Notes: a model not told the origin generated them from the letters alone. 64,000 bases of DNA from Escherichia coli (GCF_044324785.1 NZ_CP172127.1), one strand, 5' to 3'. Counted from the first letter of the stretch, positions 10,869 to 54,814 are shown. A program made the numbers and translations.

Positions 10869-12131
10869 CTATTTTAATGGATTGTTAATCTTTGCATATT
10901 CAAACGGGCTGATACATTGTTCTCTGTTCGCACCCAGAAAATCTGCCCACCACTGTAGCATCAGTCGACGTTCTTCCAGATGTTCTGCTTTATGGATATA
11001 TGCAGCACGTACACCATTACGCTCCTGATGGCTCATCTGACGTTCCACAGCATCGCGGGACCACAAACCTGATTCAATCAATGCACTGCACGCCATCGCC
11101 CGGAATCCATGACCACAGACTTCCTGGGTTGTGTCATATCCCATCACCCTCAGGGCTTTATTTACAGTATTTTCACTGATCGGTTTACGCGGGTCATGTG
11201 CTCCCGTAAAGATCAGACCATTTTCACCAGCCCATGTCTGTAGTTCTGTCAGTATGGCTACAGCCTGTTTGCTGAGTGGCACAAGATGTGGTGTTCGCAT
11301 CTTGGAGCCCCGGTGTGAGTATTTTACGCCTGGCAGAGGTTCGCGTTCGGCTGGAATAGTCCACATGGCATTGTCAATATCAATTTCAGACCAGCGGGAA
11401 TATCTGAGTTCACTGGAACGAATAAAAACCAGTAAATTCAGCATAACTGCCAGTCGGGTGACAGGCTGACCTTTATAACCGTCAATACGCGACAGAAGTT
11501 CAGGCAGGCGTGAAAGATCCAGAGCAGGGCGATGCTGGCGTTTTACCGTGGTCAATGCACCAGCCATATCCAGAGCCGGGTTATATCTGATGATGCCAGA
11601 CTGTACGGCATAACGCATTACAGCAGATATTCTTTGCTGCAGACGACTGGCGATTTCATAAATTTGTTTTGCTTCTGCAGCACGAACAGGGATAAGCAGG
11701 TCCGGGGTATTGAGTGTTGTGATATCCCGGTTGCCGATAAAGGGGAAAACGTGTGTCTCGAGGCTTTTGATTACTTTATCGCTGTGTGATTGTGCCCATT
11801 GTTTATTACTGGCATGCCAGCGTCGTGCAATATGTTCAAAAGAGAGTTGTAAATCAGGGACTACTTTTTTAGCTCTTTTTTGTTCGCAAGGGTCAATCCC
11901 CTCTGAAATCAGTTTTCGGGCCTCATCCCGTTTTGTACGAGCTTCGGAGAGAGAAACTTCTGGATATACACCAAGTGCCAGAGTCTTCTCCTTACCCAGA
12001 ATACGATAACGGAGACGCCAGTAACGGGAACCATTAGGATGAACCAGCAGGAACATGCCAGCCCCGTCAGTGAGTTTATAAGCCTTGTCAGTGTGCTTTG
12101 CAGCCCGGATTTTTGCGTCAGTCAGTGCCAT
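10869..12131 (-). CDS. P4-type tyrosine integrase (CP4-like island integrase)
   Basis: 420-aa ORF; N-terminal LTDAKIRAAK..GMFLLVHPNGSRYWRLRYR arm-binding domain and C-terminal catalytic region (HGFRAM...RAAY). Confidence 0.9.
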   Translation of the reverse strand: MALTDAKIRAAKHTDKAYKLTDGAGMFLLVHPNGSRYWRLRYRILGKEKTLALGVYPEVSLSEARTKRDEARKLISEGIDPCEQKRAKKVVPDLQLSFEHIARRWHASNKQWAQSHSDKVIKSLETHVFPFIGNRDITTLNTPDLLIPVRAAEAKQIYEIASRLQQRISAVMRYAVQSGIIRYNPALDMAGALTTVKRQHRPALDLSRLPELLSRIDGYKGQPVTRLAVMLNLLVFIRSSELRYSRWSEIDIDNAMWTIPAEREPLPGVKYSHRGSKMRTPHLVPLSKQAVAILTELQTWAGENGLIFTGAHDPRKPISENTVNKALRVMGYDTTQEVCGHGFRAMACSALIESGLWSRDAVERQMSHQERNGVRAAYIHKAEHLEERRLMLQWWADFLGANREQCISPFEYAKINNPLK

Positions 12132-32962: not shown

Positions 32963-33554
32963 TTTTGTTACCTCGCGCTGTCAATGGAAGTAGTACCTCA
33001 TCCGATATCTGAAAATGTTTTCCGGTGGATGTTACAGCGAATTTCATGTAAGACATGTTGTTGTCGGTATTGTTCAGTACTGTGCGTTGTGAGCGTATTC
33101 GTTATCAGACAGAGGGGCAGGGAACAAACGTCAGAGGTTAAGGATATCCGGGAACAAATGGCGTAAACGGACATCTCAGTGCCTGAGAAACAGTACAGGT
33201 CAGGCCATCATGGCCTGCAAACAGAGCCCTGGCGACCCCGTGGCCGAAAACGAAACAATAACCCGCGCGCAGTGCGAGGAATCCGGATGTGAAGCAATCA
33301 GCAGGTAATATTAATGGCAGGACCAGCAGGTTCTTTAAACAAACGAACATGCTGTAATTGATATTTTGCTTATTGTATTTTCTTTTTAGTTATTAAATTA
33401 ATTTATTTACGAAAAATTTTCTGCAGATACAGGATGGGAATTCAGGGTGTCATCACGCCTTATGATGACACCCTTCCCCTGGTTGTGGAAAACCGAAGGA
33501 TATATCAGGTTCAGCAACAAAATCAGTGAGCTGAAAGATACCAGTCCCCCAGCT

Positions 33555-34574
33555 TCAGCAGCTTTCACGTAAACATAAACAGGGCTCAATGAATATCTGA
33601 TTGCTCCAGTTACCTTCTTTAATTCGTTCCAGCAAAACATTTCCTGCTTCCAGACCAATTTTCCTGTGAGGAACGGCCATTGTTGTTAATGATGGTTGGC
33701 AAACTTTGCTGACGTCACTGTCACCAAATCCTACTACGGCGAGCTCGTCTGGAACTTTGATCCGTCTTCGTTGACATTCATAGAGAACACCGCAGGCTAA
33801 CTCATCTGACACACATACCAGGGCATCCAGTTCCGGCCATGCGAGCAAAAATTCCGGTAGTTGTGATGCTCCGGTGGAAAAAACAGGTGGCAGAGCAGCG
33901 TTAATAACACGGTTGGGAGACATATGATGGCGTAACATAGCTTTATACCATCCCTGTAAATGCTGCTGAAAGATCCACTGTTCCTGGTTAGCGCATAGCA
34001 AACCGATATTCTGATAACCACGTTGTACCAGCATATCCGTCAGCTCGAACATTGCTGCAACATTATCAATACCAATGTTGATATCTATCGGATCAGTACG
34101 AATGGCACCGATTTCTATAACAGGAATCGAGGCATTTTTGAGCAAGTGACGCACGGTACTATTATGCTCAACACTAAGCAAAATTGCTGCAGCGATATTA
34201 GAAGCCAGCAGGGTTTCCAGCAGTTTTTCTTCTTGTTCCAGACGATGGCGTGACTCAGCCAGGATTATTTGATACCCCGCTGGTTGTAGCACATGTTGCA
34301 GCCCGGCAAACATTTCCGTGCATCCCGCTTCAGCCAGGTTTGGCACGACCATTGCGATCGTGTGTGAAGATGCCGATGCCAGTGCGCTTGCAGTGAGGTT
34401 GGGCATATACCCTAATTCATTAACTGCGGCTTCAATCTTCTCCCTCAATTTATCTGAAACTTGTTCGGGAGTGCGTAACGCTCTGGATACAGTCATTGTG
34501 CCAACTCCCGCGAGTTGCGCGACATCAGCAATAGTGACTTTACCTGTACTACGACGTTTTCGGGTTATTGCCAT
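33555..34574 (-). CDS. LacI/GalR-family transcriptional regulator
   Basis: N-terminal HTH VTIADVAQLAGVGTMTVSRALR followed by a periplasmic-binding-like sugar domain. Confidence 0.8.
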   Translation of the reverse strand: MAITRKRRSTGKVTIADVAQLAGVGTMTVSRALRTPEQVSDKLREKIEAAVNELGYMPNLTASALASASSHTIAMVVPNLAEAGCTEMFAGLQHVLQPAGYQIILAESRHRLEQEEKLLETLLASNIAAAILLSVEHNSTVRHLLKNASIPVIEIGAIRTDPIDINIGIDNVAAMFELTDMLVQRGYQNIGLLCANQEQWIFQQHLQGWYKAMLRHHMSPNRVINAALPPVFSTGASQLPEFLLAWPELDALVCVSDELACGVLYECQRRRIKVPDELAVVGFGDSDVSKVCQPSLTTMAVPHRKIGLEAGNVLLERIKEGNWSNQIFIEPCLCLRESC

Positions 34575-34706
34575 ACAAAATCCTGCTCAGCGACTACATA
34601 TGGAGATCTTTTATTACTTATCATCAACGGCTTCCTGCACTGCCAGTAGCAGAGTATACCTCTTAATATCTGCCATAAGTCTGGATTTAATCAGTGAAAT
34701 CTATTT

Positions 34707-34754
34707 TGATAGCGCTATCACAAATTCGAACAATACCTCCTGATAGCGCTATCT
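34707..34754. promoter_or_regulatory. Two LacI-type palindromic operator candidates in the divergent intergenic region
   Basis: Perfect palindrome TGATAGCGCTATCA at 34707-34720; near-copy TGATAGCGCTATCT at 34741-34754. Confidence 0.5.
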
Positions 34755-34825
34755 TTGTGATATTGATCGCAGATATACCGTCGTTACTTGAATACATTCT
34801 GGTCATATAAATAAGAAATTAGGGG

Positions 34826-35275
34826 GTGGGAGTGCTTAATATCTGGCTTTCTGATTCAACAATCGCATTACGAAAGAATGCCGCAACCTGGCAGCAGGCA
34901 TTAGATATCTGTGCCAGACCGTTACTGGATGCAGAGATAATTACGACGGATTATCTCAGTGCGATAAAGACACAACATGAAAAACTGGGGCCTTATTATG
35001 TCCTGGCACCCGGGCTGGCCATGCCGCATGCCCGACCAGAAGAAGGGGCAAAAGGATTAGGTTTATCATTATTAAAACTTGAAGAAGGTGTCAGTTTTCA
35101 TACAGAGGAATTTGATCCTGTAGATGTTATCATTTTACTTGCCGCACCAGACAAACACAGTCATATCGAAATGATATCTGCACTGGCTGAGTTATTCTCC
35201 AGCGAAAAAGATTTACATGAATTGCATCAGGCTCGCAATGTGGAGGAAATAAAAAAGATAATTTCACGGTTCTGA
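34826..35275 (+). CDS. PTS EIIA component (ascorbate/mannitol-type EIIA-2)
   Basis: 149-aa ORF; LAMPHARPE active-site region. Confidence 0.75.
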   Translation: MGVLNIWLSDSTIALRKNAATWQQALDICARPLLDAEIITTDYLSAIKTQHEKLGPYYVLAPGLAMPHARPEEGAKGLGLSLLKLEEGVSFHTEEFDPVDVIILLAAPDKHSHIEMISALAELFSSEKDLHELHQARNVEEIKKIISRF

Positions 35276-35353
35276 TTACATTATAAATTCAGTCTTTTCA
35301 CAACATTGCGCCGTTGCGTGATGGGACTTCTTCAACTTAAAATGGTGAATATA

Positions 35354-35626
35354 ATGAAAATTATGGCTATTTGTGGCTCAGGGCTTGGTAGTAGTTTTAT
35401 GGTCGAAATGAATATTAAAAAAGTTCTGAAAAAAATGGATATAGAGGCGGAAGTGGAACATTCCGATCTCTCATCAGCAACGCCAGGGGCTGCCGATTTA
35501 TTTGTGATGGCCAAAGATATTGCTGCCAGTGCCAGCGTACCGGAAAGTCAGTTGGTGGTTATCAACAACATCATTGATATTAATGAACTCGAAACGCAAC
35601 TGCGTAACTGGTTAGCAAAACAATAA
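35354..35626 (+). CDS. PTS EIIB component (UlaB/SgaB-like)
   Basis: MKIMAICGSGLGSSFM catalytic Cys motif; internal start of track ORF 35306-35626. Confidence 0.75.
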   Translation: MKIMAICGSGLGSSFMVEMNIKKVLKKMDIEAEVEHSDLSSATPGAADLFVMAKDIAASASVPESQLVVINNIIDINELETQLRNWLAKQ

Positions 35627-35642
35627 CCTTAATTGAAGCGAG

Positions 35643-37037
35643 GTGGATATGTTTATCCTTGAAACGCTGAATTTTGTTGTTGATATACTTAAAGTGCCCG
35701 CGATACTGGTCGGCTTGATTGCCTTAATTGGTCTGGTTGCCCAGAAAAAATCTTTTTCAGATGTTGTTAAAGGTACAATTAAAACTATTCTCGGCTTTAT
35801 TGTACTGGGCGGTGGTGCCACTGTTTTGGTTGGTTCGTTAAATCCTCTTGGGAGTATGTTTGAACATGCCTTTAATATTCAGGGCATCATTCCGAATAAT
35901 GAGGCTATTGTTTCTATTGCGCTGGAAAAATATGGCGCATCGACGGCCCTTATTATGGCATTTGGTATGGTGGCGAATATTATTGTTGCCCGCTTTACCC
36001 GCCTTAAATATATCTTCCTGACCGGACACCACACATTTTACATGGCCTGCATGATTGGTGTGATTCTGACAGTGGCTGGTTTTGAAGGTATATCACTGGT
36101 CTTTACCGGTTCTCTTATTCTGGGACTTGTGATGGCATTTTTCCCGGCATTAGCACAACGCTATATGAAGCGTATTACGGGGAATGATGACATTGCTTTT
36201 GGTCACTTTGGCACTCTGGGATATGTACTTTCTGGCTGGATTGGCAGCGTGTGCGGTAAAGGTTCCCGCTCCACCGAAGAGATGAATTTGCCCAAAAATC
36301 TGAGCTTCCTGCGCGACAGTTCCATCTCTATTTCTCTTACGATGATGGTGATTTATCTGATCATGGCGATCAGTGCTGGTCGTGAGTTCGTTGAAAGCCA
36401 GTTCAGTGGTGGTCAAAACTACCTTGTCTACGCCATCATAATGGCCATCACCTTCGCTGCTGGTGTATTTATTATTCTGCAAGGCGTGCGTTTAATCCTT
36501 GCTGAAATAGTTCCGGCATTTACCGGGTTTTCAGAAAAGCTGGTGCCGAATGCCCGTCCGGCCCTCGATTGCCCGGTTGTGTATCCGTATGCGCCAAACG
36601 CAGTGTTAGTTGGTTTCTTGTTTAGCTTTTTTGGCGGTCTGGTAGGGCTATTTTTGTTGGGACAGATGAAACTGGTGTTGATTCTTCCGGGTGTCGTTCC
36701 TCACTTTTTTACCGGGGCGGCTGCTGGCGTATTTGGTAACGCTACGGGGGGACGTCGTGGCGCAATGATTGGTGCTTTTGCGAATGGCTTATTGATTACC
36801 TTCCTGCCAGTACTGTTATTGCCGGTTCTTGGGGCGATAGGCTTTGCTAATACGACCTTTTCCGATGCAGATTTTGGTGCTGTCGGCATCGTCCTCGGAA
36901 ACCTGGCACGTTATCTCTCACCTTTTGCCATCACCGGACTTGTAGTAGCGCTATTTGTGCTGCTGGTTGCCTGGAACATTTTCGCCAGTAACAAAATCGC
37001 TGCCAAAGCGCAGAAGAAGAGTGGAGCCAAATCATGA
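35643..37037 (+). CDS. PTS EIIC permease (UlaA/SgaT family)
   Basis: 464-aa polytopic membrane protein immediately after EIIB. Confidence 0.8.
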   Translation: MDMFILETLNFVVDILKVPAILVGLIALIGLVAQKKSFSDVVKGTIKTILGFIVLGGGATVLVGSLNPLGSMFEHAFNIQGIIPNNEAIVSIALEKYGASTALIMAFGMVANIIVARFTRLKYIFLTGHHTFYMACMIGVILTVAGFEGISLVFTGSLILGLVMAFFPALAQRYMKRITGNDDIAFGHFGTLGYVLSGWIGSVCGKGSRSTEEMNLPKNLSFLRDSSISISLTMMVIYLIMAISAGREFVESQFSGGQNYLVYAIIMAITFAAGVFIILQGVRLILAEIVPAFTGFSEKLVPNARPALDCPVVYPYAPNAVLVGFLFSFFGGLVGLFLLGQMKLVLILPGVVPHFFTGAAAGVFGNATGGRRGAMIGAFANGLLITFLPVLLLPVLGAIGFANTTFSDADFGAVGIVLGNLARYLSPFAITGLVVALFVLLVAWNIFASNKIAAKAQKKSGAKS

Positions 37038-37864
37038 ATGTTAAAGAATTGACTCAATTTGCACGGGATATACGTATCCAGACGCTTAAATCATTAACTC
37101 ATCTCGGCTTCGGTCATTATGGTGGCAGCATGTCGGTTGTGGAAACGCTGGCAGTGCTTTATGGCGCTGTAATGAAAATTGATCCTGCTGCTCCCGACTG
37201 GCCTGAGCGTGACTATTTTATCCTGTCCAAAGGACATGCCGGACCTGCTCTCTACAGTACTCTGGCGCTGAAAGGCTACTTTCCACTGGAAGAATTAAGC
37301 ACCTTAAATCAGAACGGAACCCGCTTACCAAGTCATCCGGATCGGCTAAAAACGTGTGGTGTTGATAGCACCACAGGATCGCTGGGGCAGGGGATATCCA
37401 TTGCCGGAGGGATGGCGCTGTCGCATAAACTGGCGGGGCGCAAGAATCGGGTTTTTTGTATTGTCGGCGATGGCGAACTTAATGAAGGCCAATGTTGGGA
37501 AGCTTTCCAGTTTATCGCGCATCATCGTTTGAATAACCTCACTGTGTTTGTGGACTGGAACAAACAGCAGCTTGATGGTCAACTGGATGAAATTATTAAT
37601 CCATTTGATTTGGAAGGAAAATTCCGGGCTTTCGGTTTTGATGTCGTGACAGTGAAGGGCGATGATATTGAGGGCTTGTTGAATGTAGTTAAACCTGTCC
37701 TGCCAGCTGAGGCCAGACCGAGAGTGGTCATTCTCGATAGCATTAAAGGGCAGGGGGTGCCGTGTCTCGAGCAACTCAGTAATTCTCATCACTTACGCCT
37801 CACAGAAGAGATGAAGGGGACGCTAAACGAAACAATTCGCCAACTGGAGGCTATGCATGATTAA
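37034..37864 (+). CDS. Transketolase, N-terminal (TPP-binding) subunit
   Basis: GHAGPALY and CIVGDGELNEGQCWEA TPP-binding motifs; stop overlaps next gene. Confidence 0.85.
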   Translation: MNVKELTQFARDIRIQTLKSLTHLGFGHYGGSMSVVETLAVLYGAVMKIDPAAPDWPERDYFILSKGHAGPALYSTLALKGYFPLEELSTLNQNGTRLPSHPDRLKTCGVDSTTGSLGQGISIAGGMALSHKLAGRKNRVFCIVGDGELNEGQCWEAFQFIAHHRLNNLTVFVDWNKQQLDGQLDEIINPFDLEGKFRAFGFDVVTVKGDDIEGLLNVVKPVLPAEARPRVVILDSIKGQGVPCLEQLSNSHHLRLTEEMKGTLNETIRQLEAMHD

Positions 37865-38810
37865 TCTCGCACCGGCAGGACAAAAAGACAGCATTGAAAT
37901 GCGCAAAGTTTATGCAGATTTTATCGCGCAACAGAGTAAAAACGTCAGTTCTGTCATTGCTCTTGAGGCTGATTTAATGAGTTCCATGGCAATGGACAGC
38001 GTGGCGCAGGATTATCCAGATCACGTCATTAATTGCGGCATTATGGAAGCCAATGTTATCGGCACAGCTGCAGGGCTGGCCTTAACCGGGCGCAAGCCAT
38101 TCGTGCATACCTTTACCGCATTTGCCAGTCGTCGCTGTTTTGATCAACTCTTTATGTCGCTTGATTACCAGGGCGCTAACGTCAAAGTTATAGCTTCTGA
38201 TGCGGGTGTTGCTGCTTGCCACAATGGCGGAACACATATGTCATTTGAAGATATGGGAATTGTGCGCGGGCTGGCGCATTCGGTGGTGATGGAGATGACA
38301 GATGCCGTAATGTTCAGCGATATCTTGCGTCAACTCGTTGCACTGGAAGGATTTTATTGGATTCGTACCATTCGGAAGCAAGCAGCGAGTATTTACGCAC
38401 CAGGTACAACCTTTACAATTGGCAAAGGGCAGGTATTACGTGAAGGTACGGATGTCACCTTAATTGCTAATGGCATTATGGTGGTGGAAGCCCTGGAGGC
38501 CGCACGTCAACTTGAGCTGGCTGGGGTAAGTGTAGCGGTGATTGATATGTTTACGCTCAAACCCGTTGATCGGATGTTAATTAAAAATTATGCCGAAAAA
38601 ACAGGACGGATCGTAACATGTGAAAACCATAGTATTCATAATGGATTAGGTTCAGCGGTTGCTGAAGTGCTTGTAGAAACTTGTCCTGTGCCCATGCGTC
38701 GGGTGGGGGTTAAAGAGCGGTATGGCCAGGTTGGAGCTCAGGACTTTTTACAGAGAGAGTACGGGTTAACCGCGCAAGATATTGTGGCGGCAGCCAGAGA
38801 GCTATTGTAA
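37857..38810 (+). CDS. Transketolase, C-terminal subunit
   Basis: 317-aa ORF; transketolase pyrimidine-binding and C-terminal domains; 8-bp overlap with the N-terminal subunit gene. Confidence 0.85.
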   Translation: MINLAPAGQKDSIEMRKVYADFIAQQSKNVSSVIALEADLMSSMAMDSVAQDYPDHVINCGIMEANVIGTAAGLALTGRKPFVHTFTAFASRRCFDQLFMSLDYQGANVKVIASDAGVAACHNGGTHMSFEDMGIVRGLAHSVVMEMTDAVMFSDILRQLVALEGFYWIRTIRKQAASIYAPGTTFTIGKGQVLREGTDVTLIANGIMVVEALEAARQLELAGVSVAVIDMFTLKPVDRMLIKNYAEKTGRIVTCENHSIHNGLGSAVAEVLVETCPVPMRRVGVKERYGQVGAQDFLQREYGLTAQDIVAAARELL

Positions 38811-39080
38811 TTCATGGAGTTTGTTTACCATTCTGTTTTTCTTAAAAGTGAGTGTCTGTGCGGTCACTAAACTCGGTAATAAAGCAGTTCATTGCAGGAT
38901 AAGAAGCGTTTGGTTGTGTCGTTTTACCGTAAGAACCGACCGCCGTATGTAGCCATTAAGCCAGTATTGGTAACGTAGGTGCCCACCTTTTCAAACTGGT
39001 GGACGCCTGTTATGGAGCAAAAACATTATCCGCAGAACCCCGCAGATCATTTTCAAATGAGTTAAACTTCAAATGGTTAA

Positions 39081-39300: not shown

Positions 39301-40036
39301 GTCAATAAGGGAATAATATTCAACATGAAGATGTCTTCTGGGAATGTTTATATAGCAAATGCTTTCACTCCGGTAATTAATTTCCGTGATTAACTGCTTT
39401 CGATCAATAAAGGAATTGCAAAAGTGTGATCTTGTTCACGACATCGTGGATAATAATATGCCTGATGTCTGAATCCGGAAACAGTGCTCTGGCGGGTTTC
39501 ATGTGAAGTTGACGGATAAAAAATCCGCACGACCAGACAGACGTGCGGTTTACGAAATTCGTAACAAGAGGCTTTTCTACGGATCACGTGGTGCGTGCCA
39601 CGTGAAATTTTTGTAGCGCAAAATGTGTGATGTGTAAATACAAGGAAGGAAAAAAGTTAAATCGGTGGAAGTCCATACCTGCCACGTGTACGTCTGCATT
39701 CCTCGTTTTGAACAGAATTCTCACCAGACATCGTGAATTTCTCATTCAATCATCAGAGATATTAACCAGGATTTTTATTGTTTTGTGATATCAGCAGTGC
39801 AGGTATACAGACATTAAAGTAATCAGGTTTATTATAACCACCTTTACAAAGTTGTATGTGTTTATAATTTAAGGATTTTAATGCCAGTCGTTTTCTGCTG
39901 CTTAAATTGAGGTCGCATATTATACACAATAATATTCCTGGCATTATTAAATTAATAAAAGAGGATTCTTATCACTGTATTTTTGCTCCGCACTACCGTT
40001 CTGGCTGGTGAAGTAATAATACAGGAGAATAACAGA

Positions 40037-41233
<1,197 letters not shown>

Positions 41234-52843: not shown

Positions 52844-54814
52844 ATGTATATGAATGTAATCAGAACTGTCATTTGTACATTAATTATAGTCCCGGTGGGA
52901 CTACAGGCAGCGACCAGTCATTCTTCTATGGCTAAAGATACAATCACCATTGTCGCGACAGGAAATCAGAACACGGTATTTGAAACGCCGTCGATGGTCA
53001 GTGTCGTCACGAATGACACACCGTGGAGTCAGAATGCGGTTACATCGGCCGGCATGCTGAAAGGTGTTGCCGGTCTCAGCCAGACTGGTGCAGGACGGAC
53101 CAATGGGCAGACCTTTAATCTACGCGGCTATGACAAAAGCGGGGTACTTGTTCTTGTTGACGGCGTCCGCCAACTCAGTGACATGGCAAAAAGCAGTGGC
53201 ACTTATCTGGATCCGGCTCTTGTCAAACGTATCGAAGTTGTCCGCGGGCCAAACTCCAGTCTGTACGGCAGTGGCGGGCTGGGAGGTGTAGTGGACTTCA
53301 GAACTGCCGATGCAGCAGATTTCCTTCCCCCCGGAGAGACAAACGGTTTAAGTCTGTGGGGAAATATTGCCAGTGGTGACCACAGCACAGGCTCGGGGCT
53401 CACCTGGTTCGGTAAAACCGGAAAAACAGATGCGCTCCTTTCTGTCATTATGCGTAAAAGAGGTAATATCTATCAAAGTGATGGTGAGCGCGCACCTAAC
53501 AAGGAAAAACCTGCAGCCCTGTTTGCGAAAGGCTCTGTCGGTATAACAGACAGTAACAAAGCAGGTGCCAGCTTGCGTCTCTACCGGAATAACACCACTG
53601 AACCGGGCAATCCCACTCAGACACATGGTGACAGCGGCCTGCGTGACAGAAAAACAGTACAAAATGACGTACAGTTCTGGTACCAGTACGCTCCTGTGGA
53701 TAACAGCCTCATCAATGTAAAGTCAACGTTATATCTCAGTGATATCACTATCAAGACAAACGGTCACAACAAAACGGCAGAATGGAGAAACAACAGAACC
53801 TCCGGTGTTAATGTTGTCAACAGGAGTCATACTCTGATTTTTCCGGGAGCCCATCAGTTAAGTTATGGCGCTGAATATTACCGTCAGCAGCAGAAGCCAG
53901 AAGGCTCTGCCACACTATATCCGGAAGGAAATATTGACTTTACATCGTTGTATTTCCAGGATGAAATGACAATGAAAAGCTACCCTGTTAACATTATCGT
54001 CGGTTCCCGCTATGACCGGTACAAGAGCTTCAATCCCCGTGCCGGAGAACTGAAAGCCGAACGCCTGTCCCCAAGGGCGGCGATTTCAGTCTCACCGACA
54101 GACTGGCTGATGATGTACGGCTCCATATCCTCTGCATTCCGAGCGCCCACAATGGCAGAAATGTACAGGGATGATGTACATTTTTACCGCAAGGGTAAAC
54201 CCAATTACTGGGTTCCTAACCTTAATCTGAAACCAGAAAATAACATCACCCGTGAGATTGGCGCAGGTATTCAACTGGATGGCCTGCTTACAGACAATGA
54301 CCGGCTGCAGTTAAAAGGCGGATATTTCGGAACGGATGCCAGAAACTATATTGCCACACGCGTGGATATGAAACGGATGCGTTCTTATTCTTATAATGTA
54401 TCCCGGGCCCGTATCTGGGGATGGGATATGCAGGGAAATTACCAGTCTGATTATGTTGACTGGGTGCTTTCTTATAACCGGACGGAAAGTATGGATGCCA
54501 GCAGCAGGGAATGGCTGGGCTCCGGCAATCCTGACACACTTATCAGTGACATCAGCATACCTGTTGGTCATAGAGGCGTTTATGCCGGATGGCGTGCTGA
54601 ACTTTCAGCATCAGCCACGCATGTGAAAAAAGGCGACTCCTATCAGGCTGGCTATGCCATACATTCCTTTTCACTGTCTTATAAGCCTGTAAGTGTTAAA
54701 GGCTTTGAGGCGTCAGTAACTCTGGATAATGCCTTCAACAAGCTTGCCATGAATGGCAAAGGTGTGCCGCTTTCAGGCCGAACTGTCAGTCTTTATACCC
54801 GTTATCAGTGGTAA
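52844..54814 (+). CDS. TonB-dependent outer-membrane haem/haemoglobin receptor (ChuA/ShuA-like)
   Basis: 656-aa ORF; signal peptide, plug-domain GYDKSGVLVLVDGVRQ, C-terminal beta-barrel ending YQW. Confidence 0.8.
   Translation: MYMNVIRTVICTLIIVPVGLQAATSHSSMAKDTITIVATGNQNTVFETPSMVSVVTNDTPWSQNAVTSAGMLKGVAGLSQTGAGRTNGQTFNLRGYDKSGVLVLVDGVRQLSDMAKSSGTYLDPALVKRIEVVRGPNSSLYGSGGLGGVVDFRTADAADFLPPGETNGLSLWGNIASGDHSTGSGLTWFGKTGKTDALLSVIMRKRGNIYQSDGERAPNKEKPAALFAKGSVGITDSNKAGASLRLYRNNTTEPGNPTQTHGDSGLRDRKTVQNDVQFWYQYAPVDNSLINVKSTLYLSDITIKTNGHNKTAEWRNNRTSGVNVVNRSHTLIFPGAHQLSYGAEYYRQQQKPEGSATLYPEGNIDFTSLYFQDEMTMKSYPVNIIVGSRYDRYKSFNPRAGELKAERLSPRAAISVSPTDWLMMYGSISSAFRAPTMAEMYRDDVHFYRKGKPNYWVPNLNLKPENNITREIGAGIQLDGLLTDNDRLQLKGGYFGTDARNYIATRVDMKRMRSYSYNVSRARIWGWDMQGNYQSDYVDWVLSYNRTESMDASSREWLGSGNPDTLISDISIPVGHRGVYAGWRAELSASATHVKKGDSYQAGYAIHSFSLSYKPVSVKGFEASVTLDNAFNKLAMNGKGVPLSGRTVSLYTRYQW

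Follow-up and report, generated by a model that had tools for sequence, protein, structure and literature searches.

In Escherichia coli, the three-protein transporter UlaABC (4RP8, 4RP9, 5ZOV) is controlled by the DeoR-type regulator UlaR and has the products of ulaG, ulaD, ulaE, and ulaF as partners. Its EIIC component, UlaA, binds vitamin C through T86, Y87, H135, I136, Q139, H194, Q195, D314, I358, F362, and M410 (PMC6048161). The ula2 operon of Streptococcus pneumoniae (ulaR2-ulaB2-ulaA2-tktN-tktC) co-transcribes a Ula-family PTS with separate tktN and tktC genes and no other catabolic enzyme; it lacks EIIA in most strains and shows modest ascorbate induction (PMC4324149). A biochemically active split transketolase, built from two polypeptides, is known from Carboxydothermus hydrogenoformans (6YAK/6YAJ; PMC7661550). 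On the regulatory side, the LacI family includes the gluconate-idonate repressors GntR and IdnR. Operators located upstream of an activator site are rarer than operators overlapping the core promoter; at gal P1, a CRP site with class II placing follows shortly after the GalR operator OE. In Salmonella, the split transketolase TktC, encoded by STM2340/STM2341, is reportedly an active transketolase (work attributed to Shaw et al. 2018, J Biol Chem).

The locus described here lies in a 64,000-nucleotide stretch of E. coli DNA (GCF_044324785.1 NZ_CP172127.1), which as a whole is referred to as the window. There is nothing unusual about this locus, which had been annotated before; it holds an intact six-gene sugar-uptake operon consisting of a repressor, a three-part PTS, and a two-subunit transketolase (Table 1). 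Genes were called from the window ORFs together with Pfam, NCBIfam, and the RefSeq models of an identical E. coli copy. The gene content and divergent layout given in an earlier note on this DNA are borne out, as every element was found at its coordinates and all six proteins have domains recognized by Pfam/NCBIfam; the EIIA gene also stands, with its start taken as 34832, the position 34826 implied in the note being that of an alternative GTG. The regulator gene diverges from the EIIA-EIIB-EIIC-TktN-TktC block (34832-38810), in which adjoining genes overlap, stop codon with start codon, by 4 bp between EIIC and TktN and by 8 bp between TktN and TktC. No isomerase, kinase, or dehydrogenase, that is, no sugar-specific enzyme that might hint at the substrate, is encoded in the cluster.

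Table 1. Genes and candidate regulatory elements of the cluster, in window coordinates.
Feature	Position	Strand	Basis and remarks
Terminator-like hairpin with T run, adjoining the regulator stop codon	33529-33554	-	Consensus scan, pattern match only
LacI/GalR-family transcription regulator, GntR/IdnR-like, 339 aa	33555-34574	-	PF00356, PF00532, PF13377; RefSeq WP_001018808.1
Conserved AGTATAC block; minus-strand TATACT is the candidate -10 of the regulator gene	34653-34659	-	Profile of 80 intergenic regions; putative promoter role
Operator candidate O1, perfect palindrome TGATAGCGCTATCA	34707-34720		Identical in 79/79 orthologous intergenic regions; invariant block reaches 34722
Operator candidate O2, TGATAGCGCTATCT, match in 13/14 positions	34741-34754		In 79/79 orthologous regions; family consensus TGRTAGCGCTATCT
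CRP-like site TGTGATATTGATCGCA (TGTGA-N6-TCNCA), beginning 1 nt past O2	34756-34771		Conserved register; CRP binding predicted
Candidate -10 hexamer TACATT (family consensus TAAAGT)	34793-34798	+	Positions 1, 2, and 6 invariant in conservation profile
PTS EIIA, 147 aa	34832-35275	+	PF00359
PTS EIIB, 90 aa	35354-35626	+	PF02302
PTS EIIC, ascorbate (SgaT/UlaA) family, 462 aa	35649-37037	+	PF03611, 510 bits; NCBIfam NF009549
Transketolase N-terminal (ThDP diphosphate-binding) subunit, 276 aa	37034-37864	+	PF00456
Transketolase C-terminal (pyrimidine-binding and C domain) subunit, 317 aa	37857-38810	+	PF02779 and PF02780

Other Escherichia species carry the same six-gene cassette in a fixed chromosomal slot with pta/yfcC on one side and yfcD on the other, as do over 70 further enterobacterial species, including members of Citrobacter, Salmonella, Klebsiella, Enterobacter, and Serratia; the synteny is identical in about 75 species. 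The copy of E. whittamii is 93.4% identical at the DNA level over exactly 33551-38811; genes, order, and operators are shared, and homology stops at the cassette borders. In Salmonella enterica subsp. arizonae, the same six genes appear in the same order (proteins 75-94% identical) in the pta-yfcC-[cluster]-yfcD slot and with the same O1/O2 operators, whereas the E. coli copy is off this native slot, in a genomic island of mosaic structure with IS remnants on its flanks. We take the cluster to be the locus of Salmonella STM2340-STM2345 (TktC; PagR). The earlier description of an island-borne pathway thus applies to E. coli only, and the objection which the earlier note itself had raised, conservation as core chromosome among relatives, largely holds outside this species. 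Far from being an exotic product of the island, what E. coli carries is a widespread native locus in a relocated copy.

Within E. coli, the cluster is accessory and resides, in few strains, in a mosaic island of the pathogenicity type. It is found sporadically, at an identity of at least 99%, in 132 of 5,426 complete genomes, and in K-12 yfcC and yfcD are adjacent, the native slot being devoid of it. The window carries a P4-type integrase gene (10869-12131) along with the island backbone, and a transposase fragment lies directly 3' of the cluster. In CLSC36, the best-matching complete genome, the module belongs to an island abutting selC, whereas PAI I5155 of APEC IMT5155 is located beside tRNA-Phe (PMC4232414). 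A further 234 of the 5,426 genomes hold an IS1-truncated remnant on the same island backbone, in which an IS1-mediated deletion has spared nothing but the 3'-terminal 179 bp of the C-subunit gene.

The transporter shares with UlaABC both the EIIC fold family and the layout of three proteins with His and Cys phospho-sites. Its PF03611 EIIC scores 989 bits against NCBIfam NF009549 (cut-off 890) and is accompanied by a separate PF02302 EIIB, with the active-site Cys7 in MKIMAICGSGLGSS (an N-terminal motif identical in 77/78 orthologues), and by a PF00359 EIIA, with the phosphorylatable His66 in GLAMPHARPEEG, a motif also kept in orthologues; the latter protein reaches the NCBIfam cut-off of neither CmtB nor UlaC. 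The designation "ascorbate-type" is right for the transporter family, but it is probably wrong for the substrate, as argued below.

Both transketolase subunits have their closest solved structures in the split enzyme of C. hydrogenoformans, with 220 bits for the N subunit (6YAK) and 239 bits for the C subunit (6YAJ). The residues H26, H66, H100, D155, N185, and H261 of TktA are conserved in the N subunit as H28, H68, H101, D146, N176, and H252, and E411 and H473 are conserved in the C subunit as E64 and H127, so that the enzyme retains the GDG...N motif for ThDP and metal, its catalytic histidines, and the Glu that activates the cofactor. In an ungapped alignment with 6YAJ and human TKT, the canonical substrate residues H461 and D469 of TktA are absent, their positions being taken by D115 and N123, and H122 stands for E468. 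The resulting motif, ASDAGxxACHNGGTH, is invariant in 73 orthologues, and while the C. hydrogenoformans enzyme keeps the canonical T-H-A-G...G-E-D-G-x-S-H, the S-D-A-G...C-H-N-G-G-T-H form recurs in a large subfamily of split C-subunits whose genes occur in diverse sugar contexts. The same logic of uptake, phosphorylation, and split transketolase recurs on an unrelated metagenomic contig, where an ABC transporter, an FGGY kinase, and a split transketolase are encoded together, and in S. pneumoniae ula2 with its Ula-type PTS (PMC4324149).

The regulator exhibits an N-terminal LacI-type HTH (PF00356, residues 14-59) and a periplasmic-binding-protein-like effector domain (PF00532 and PF13377, across residues 71-339), as is usual for the LacI/GalR family. 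GntR and IdnR are the best-scoring characterized families, but orthology with either was discarded, since the NCBIfam scores of 270 bits for GntR (NF052440, cut-off 400) and 225 bits for IdnR (cut-off 500) are under the cut-offs, as is that for E. coli GntR (202 versus 433). The operator candidates resemble those of GntR/IdnR and the gal system in being 14-bp palindromes with a central CG, although the consensus operator of GntR is unlike them in sequence. With up to 2 mismatches, the palindrome TGATAGCGCTATCA has 3 matches in the window, versus 0.23 expected from shuffles. Within the 257 bp that separate the divergent genes, two of them stand 34 bp apart; the remaining one (53740) is without the central CG and falls inside a TonB-dependent receptor ORF (52844-54814). 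O2 is spaced 34-35 bp from O1 in all 79 orthologous loci of other Enterobacterales. Because O1 is invariant and O2 nearly so across these loci, despite regulators that are only 73-96% identical (80 species) and intergenic flanks that are poorly conserved, the view that both palindromes make good operator candidates is strongly supported.

Under a strict pattern, the CRP-like site keeps its register in 49 of 80 regions, and a 13-species alignment reveals near-matches among the remaining ones; the flanking half-sites show high conservation. The site is centered at 34763.5, upstream of a conserved TAnAnT at 34793-34798 and a conserved CAT at 34804-34806. Operon transcription is predicted to start near this CAT, which would place CRP at -41.5, O2 at -57.5, and O1 at -91.5. 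This predicted layout is like that of gal P1, with an operator just upstream of a class II-placed CRP site; that operators in such a position are the rarer kind counts against it.

According to these data, the most likely interpretation is that of a CRP-activated, repressor-controlled operon, which would take up a carbohydrate, phosphorylate it, and feed it by way of a transketolase of its own into the pentose-phosphate pathway. In the absence of inducer, a dimer of the GntR/IdnR-like regulator would occupy O1 and O2. Since O2 abuts the CRP site at its presumed class II position (-41.5 from the predicted start), the bound repressor would block the recruitment of CRP or RNA polymerase, by analogy with GalR at gal OE, while O1, at its fixed distance of 34-35 bp, would add cooperativity and may also govern the divergent regulator promoter. 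When inducer is present and glucose absent, EIIA (through His66), EIIB (through Cys7), and the Ula-family EIIC would import and phosphorylate the carbohydrate, probably not L-ascorbate. The translationally coupled transketolase would then act on the phosphorylated product or on a pentose-phosphate intermediate derived from it, yielding central pentose-phosphate and glycolytic intermediates. We give a probability of roughly 70% to this reading as a whole, namely, that the cluster forms an entire and seemingly functional catabolic operon, repressor included, which is a relocated copy of the locus that most Enterobacterales have at pta/yfcC-yfcD and which works by this mechanism.

One alternative is that the cluster serves as a second uptake system for L-ascorbate or a close derivative, in which the chromosomal UlaG and UlaDEF make D-xylulose-5-P from ascorbate-6-P and the extra transketolase merely raises the capacity to drain xylulose-5-P. 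The EIIC does belong to the ascorbate PTS family and bears the NCBIfam name "PTS ascorbate transporter subunit IIC", but this name rests on homology, not experiment, and the protein reaches only about 177 bits against UlaA (HMMER, 4RP8). In the same alignment, H135, H194, D314, and F362 of UlaA are kept, I358 is V, and M410 is outside the aligned region, while T86, Y87, I136, Q139, and Q195 are replaced by N, E, H, Y, and F, respectively. Ascorbate is thus unlikely as the substrate because 5 of the 10 aligned vitamin-C-contacting residues are altered. In S. pneumoniae, ascorbate brings about a 2-3 fold induction of the analogous ula2 operon (PMC4324149), which relies on the PRD/BglG-type activator UlaR2 and a different site. 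In addition, neither ulaG, ulaD, ulaE, and ulaF nor a DeoR-type UlaR was found in the cluster, either in the window or in about 75 species, and the regulator is of the GntR/IdnR-like LacI type. Taken together, this second ascorbate route, including the draining role of the transketolase, seems improbable. The transketolase could also be a spare pentose-phosphate isozyme that does not act on the PTS product.

Reports on Salmonella raise the question of whether the regulator is mainly a virulence or global regulator, with the adjacent operon as a secondary target. STM2345 has been equated with PagR, which activates SPI-2 genes (PMC12413039), is induced by PhoB under low phosphate, and responds to low Mg2+ (PMC12351708). 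Judging from gene order, STM2340-STM2345, a run of six consecutive tags, could correspond to the cluster with its six genes. However, the equation of STM2345 with the LacI-family gene is putative, the regulator is not known to act in virulence in E. coli, and strong operator matches in the window are confined to the regulator's own divergent promoter, which holds two. Moreover, O1 and O2 are conserved across genera without SPI-2, indicating that local autoregulation and operon control are the ancestral function, and a primarily virulence-related role is therefore very unlikely. A separate question is whether the E. coli cluster is passive island cargo heading for loss, intact merely through recent acquisition and of no fitness value. 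Its restriction to 132 genomes, all with copies of at least 99% identity, and the empty K-12 slot would fit this view, and the IS1 deletion being commoner than the intact cluster (234 versus 132 genomes) argues against strong selection in E. coli. Against it, all six reading frames are full length compared with their orthologues, and the operators and promoter elements are intact. Passive carriage is a possibility, albeit a doubtful one, and it concerns selective value in E. coli rather than mechanism, being compatible with the catabolic operon proposed above.

Beyond this CRP-activated catabolic operon, it can be tentatively suggested that the PTS of the Ula family and the split transketolase of the D...N type constitute an undescribed two-step catabolic route under an anti-CRP LacI repressor. 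If this were true, the import step would phosphorylate a ketose or a compound related to ascorbate, and the dedicated transketolase would cleave the resulting phosphate ester directly, making isomerase, kinase, and aldolase all dispensable; candidates would be xylulose-, sedoheptulose-, or erythrulose-like sugars of plant or host origin. Control would be exerted by a sugar-acid-type LacI repressor acting as a CRP anti-activator, and the same logic would apply to the metagenomic clusters that combine an ABC transporter, an FGGY kinase, and a split transketolase.

The six genes at 33555-38810 are most simply read as a CRP-activated, repressor-controlled operon for the import, phosphorylation and transketolase processing of a carbohydrate. 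The six reading frames, as well as two palindromes that are considered here as candidate operators (O1 and O2), are located where the earlier note had placed them. The reading frames of EIIC and the N-terminal transketolase subunit overlap by 4 bp, and those of the two transketolase subunits by 8 bp, which suggests that these three genes are translationally coupled. Annotation of this locus already exists, as does a mention of it in an APEC island, and its Salmonella orthologue has been partly characterised. By gene order, we take the locus to be the counterpart of STM2340-STM2345 of S. Typhimurium, whose split transketolase was reportedly characterised as TktC by Shaw et al. in 2018.

Features of the cluster, its intergenic region and the surrounding island (starts of the five operon genes are those of the RefSeq gene models of an identical E. 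coli copy)
Feature	Position	Strand	Basis or remark
LacI-family regulator	33555-34574	minus, divergent	Pfam
PTS EIIA	start 34832	plus	PF00359
PTS EIIB	start 35354	plus	PF02302
PTS EIIC, ascorbate/SgaT family	start 35649	plus	PF03611, 510 bits
Transketolase N-terminal subunit	start 37034	plus	PF00456
Transketolase C-terminal subunit	37857-38810	plus	PF02779 and PF02780
AGTATAC element	34653-34659		TATACT on the minus strand
Candidate operator O1	34707-34720		TGATAGCGCTATCA, perfect palindrome
Candidate operator O2	34741-34754		copy with a final T
CRP-type site	34756-34771		TGTGA-N6-TCNCA
TAnAnT element	34793-34798		positions 1, 2 and 6 invariant
Conserved CAT	34804-34806		
Repeat copy within EIIC	36946-36959		holds TAGCGCTA, context GTAGTAGCGCTATTTGTG
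P4-type tyrosine integrase	10869-12131		Arm-DNA-bind_3, Phage_int_M, Phage_integrase
YadA-like trimeric autotransporter adhesin	39983-41233		(AQ)n run after signal peptide
Second sugar module	42950-45195		NanE-like ManNAc-6-P epimerase, glucose/maltose-family PTS EIICB
RpiR/MurR regulator of second module	about 45360-46185	divergent	CLSC36 annotation
Phytase-like esterase	46342-47685		island cargo
UgpB-like solute-binding protein	49180-50496		orphan, without adjacent permease genes
TonB-dependent receptor	52844-54814		followed by a DUF4198 protein

Three matches to the 14-mer with at most two mismatches were found in the 64-kb window, versus 0.23 expected from shuffles, and two of them fall in the regulator-EIIA intergenic region, 34 bp apart. 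In an alignment of 80 intergenic regions, O1 extended by two bases (TGATAGCGCTATCACA) does not vary in any sequence, and O2 reads TGRTAGCGCTATCT throughout, 34 or 35 bp downstream of O1 and directly followed by an invariant TTG, while the DNA around both is mostly 0-50% conserved. This conservation in poorly conserved surroundings provides strong comparative evidence that both candidate operators are functional, as had been proposed from the palindromes themselves. The 8-bp operator core, TAGCGCTA, occurs a third time inside EIIC; this copy shows four mismatches to the 14-mer and has been treated as a probable chance occurrence. LacI-family systems sometimes employ distant auxiliary operators. 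Full-text searches of the literature for the operator sequence returned unrelated papers only.

The CRP-type site begins one nucleotide after O2 and is found in the same register in 49 of the 80 regions when the strict pattern is applied, with near-matches among the rest in a 13-species alignment. Thirty bases beyond it lies the TAnAnT element, and downstream of this, the conserved CAT. If transcription starts at this CAT, the CRP site would be centred at -41.5 (class II), O2 at -57.5 and O1 at -91.5. At gal OE, GalR likewise binds next to an activator site, and by analogy, the position of candidate O2 against the CRP-type site suggests repression by excluding or neutralising CRP. On the minus strand, the conserved TATACT may be the -10 element of the regulator gene. 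A sigma-70 scan match overlapping O1 (TTGATA-17-AACAAT) was dropped, since its -10 is not conserved across species, and no riboswitch or other known RNA was matched in the leader when the entire window was searched against Rfam.

The best-scoring models for the regulator are GntR and IdnR, both far below their cut-offs, so that on these scores it is a relative of the sugar-acid repressors and not an orthologue of either. The S. Typhimurium protein STM2345 has been named PagR (PMC12413039), and by analogy with what is claimed for PagR, it could be argued that the main role of the regulator lies in global or virulence control. Conservation of the candidate operators in genera without SPI-2 makes it unlikely that such a role is ancestral.

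Regarding the transporter, the EIIA motif GLAMPH66ARPEEG and the EIIB motif MKIMAIC7GSGLGSS are both essentially invariant among orthologues, and EIIC scores above the cut-off of the NCBIfam model "PTS ascorbate transporter subunit IIC". The label "ascorbate-type" used in the earlier note holds for the fold family, but probably not for the substrate. EIIC shows only distant similarity to UlaA of E. coli (177 bits), in which vitamin C is contacted by T86, Y87, H135, I136, Q139, H194, Q195, D314, I358, F362 and M410 (PMC6048161). H135, H194, D314 and F362 are kept in EIIC, I358 is replaced by V and M410 is unaligned, whereas T86, Y87, I136, Q139 and Q195 are changed to N, E, H, Y and F, respectively. 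Moreover, no ulaG, ulaD, ulaE or ulaF gene is found beside the cluster in any species surveyed. The divergence of the ligand residues, the distant similarity to UlaA and the absence of these genes make ascorbate an unlikely substrate. The cluster might nevertheless be a second ascorbate system that uses the chromosomal Ula enzymes; the changes in the EIIC ligand pocket count against this, as does the type of regulator. By architecture, the closest studied analogue is the ula2 operon of S. pneumoniae, which is weakly induced by ascorbate and, unlike the cluster with its LacI-family protein, has a PRD-type regulator (PMC4324149).

The closest match for both transketolase subunits is the split transketolase of Carboxydothermus hydrogenoformans (6YAK/6YAJ), which is biochemically active (PMC7661550). 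Comparison with E. coli TktA shows conservation of the ThDP/metal motif and of the catalytic residues H26, H66, H100, D155, N185, H261, E411 and H473. In contrast, residues 114-127 of the C-subunit form a variant active-site segment, ASDAGVAACHNGGTH, which replaces the canonical TH..GEDG.TH: S-D-A-G...C-H-N-G-G-T-H is found where TktA, human TKT and the C. hydrogenoformans enzyme show T-H-x-x...G-E-D-G-x-T/S-H. D115 stands at the position of the phosphate-binding His461 and N123 at that of the stereo-determining Asp469. This motif is invariant in 73 orthologues. When 1.84 billion cluster representatives were searched, it proved to define a large and apparently uncharacterised subfamily of split C-subunits, which occurs in many sugar-catabolic contexts in metagenomes. 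These contexts (an ABC transporter with an FGGY kinase and transketolase; an alcohol dehydrogenase with a DeoC aldolase; RpiB with a GFO-type oxidoreductase; housekeeping neighbours) rule out that the motif is PTS-specific, and indicate a feature of the lineage that fits ordinary transketolase chemistry and is no guide to the substrate.

In the proposed operon, CRP would activate and the LacI-family regulator would repress transcription, the PTS would import and phosphorylate a carbohydrate, and the dedicated transketolase would channel the product into the pentose-phosphate pathway. The lack of an isomerase, kinase or aldolase in the cluster suggests two possible fates for this product: it may itself be the transketolase substrate (a ketose phosphate), or enzymes encoded elsewhere may complete the pathway.

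Scanning a single genome of each bacterial species with the regulator as query yielded 80 loci, with regulators 73-96% identical, in Escherichia whittamii and E. albertii, Citrobacter, Salmonella enterica subsp. arizonae, Klebsiella, Raoultella, Enterobacter, Kosakonia, Lelliottia, Cedecea, Mixta, Serratia, Rahnella, Erwinia and others. The five operon genes show identical order and orientation at every locus with a sufficiently long contig. The cassette is flanked by pta-yfcC and yfcD-yfcE in Escherichia, C. koseri and Salmonella, and by ackA-pta and yfcD at the loci checked in Klebsiella and Rahnella. The cluster is therefore island-borne, as the earlier note had it, only within E. coli; in the other enterobacteria checked, it occupies a fixed site. 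E. coli is without the cluster at this native site: in K-12, yfcC and yfcD are adjacent, separated by 32 bp, and none of pta, yfcC or yfcD is present in the window. Homology to E. whittamii (93.4% DNA identity) is confined to the cassette, ending at its borders, 33551 and 38811, and the copy on the E. coli island is therefore a relocated version of the native enterobacterial locus. No flanking direct or inverted repeats that would explain its movement were found.

Many E. coli isolates of human, poultry and pig origin carry the 5.6-kb cluster region on their chromosomes with 100% identity. Of 5,426 complete genomes of the species, only 132 contain the whole cluster, in every case with at least 99% identity and in none on a plasmid, while a further 234 hold only a remnant, the final 179 bp of the gene for the C-subunit (97.8% identity), so that the deleted form is commoner than the intact one. 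In these genomes, IS1 replaces the regulator, the PTS genes and most of the transketolase within the same island backbone (YagK/YfjJ, AlpA-like, ProQ/FinO pseudogene, the cluster, transposase fragment, YadA-like adhesin), as in 13KWH46 (L082 5252-6179), PKF4 (L083 5251-6179) and 746 (L095 33007-33934). Adjoining IS1 in this backbone, the remnants are not scars at the native pta-yfcD site. Such frequent deletion favours the view that the cluster is dispensable cargo in E. coli, which is compatible with its reading as a carbohydrate operon. The cluster is not the tkt1 island of APEC O1, which is a different island of 16 kb carrying an unsplit, full-length transketolase and a glucose-type PTS (PMC3349570).

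A P4-type integrase and the usual backbone of such islands are present in the window. Neither a tRNA nor a tmRNA gene was detected by ARAGORN across the 64 kb, and the island copy's attachment site is therefore out of view. Positions 40586-64000 are 99.97% identical to strain CLSC36, whose island spans from setC to an integrase beside tRNA-Sec (selC) and carries ireA. The left 29 kb (1-29100) is a mosaic with no near-identical full-length match among complete genomes, the best one covering 80% at 93% identity; this island arrangement is unrepresented among the 5,426 complete E. coli genomes. Other cargo is listed in the table. The YadA-like adhesin is strain-variable in length (416 aa in the window, 491 in CLSC36 and 513 in PKF4), and the second sugar module may be equivalent to aec-35 to aec-37, a carbohydrate module on AGI-3, the selC island of APEC BEN2908. 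Outside the window, the selC-associated island of CLSC36 (L094 13562-20505) adjoins yicJ-yicI and a second operon encoding a BglG-type regulator, a fructose-type PTS, two aldolases, a ROK kinase and a sugar isomerase, which we take to be the frz metabolic operon published for ExPEC. In CLSC36, selC thus has an accessory PTS operon on either side.

These findings leave current concepts unchanged. The cluster is a widely conserved enterobacterial PTS, and assigning its sugar is a routine de-orphaning problem of modest importance, for which concrete handles are offered by the two invariant operators, the predicted dependence on CRP and a ligand pocket that diverges from that of UlaA. Its loss from the native slot, its regain on ExPEC/APEC islands and its frequent deletion by IS1 provide an example of the turnover of metabolic cargo in pathogenicity islands.
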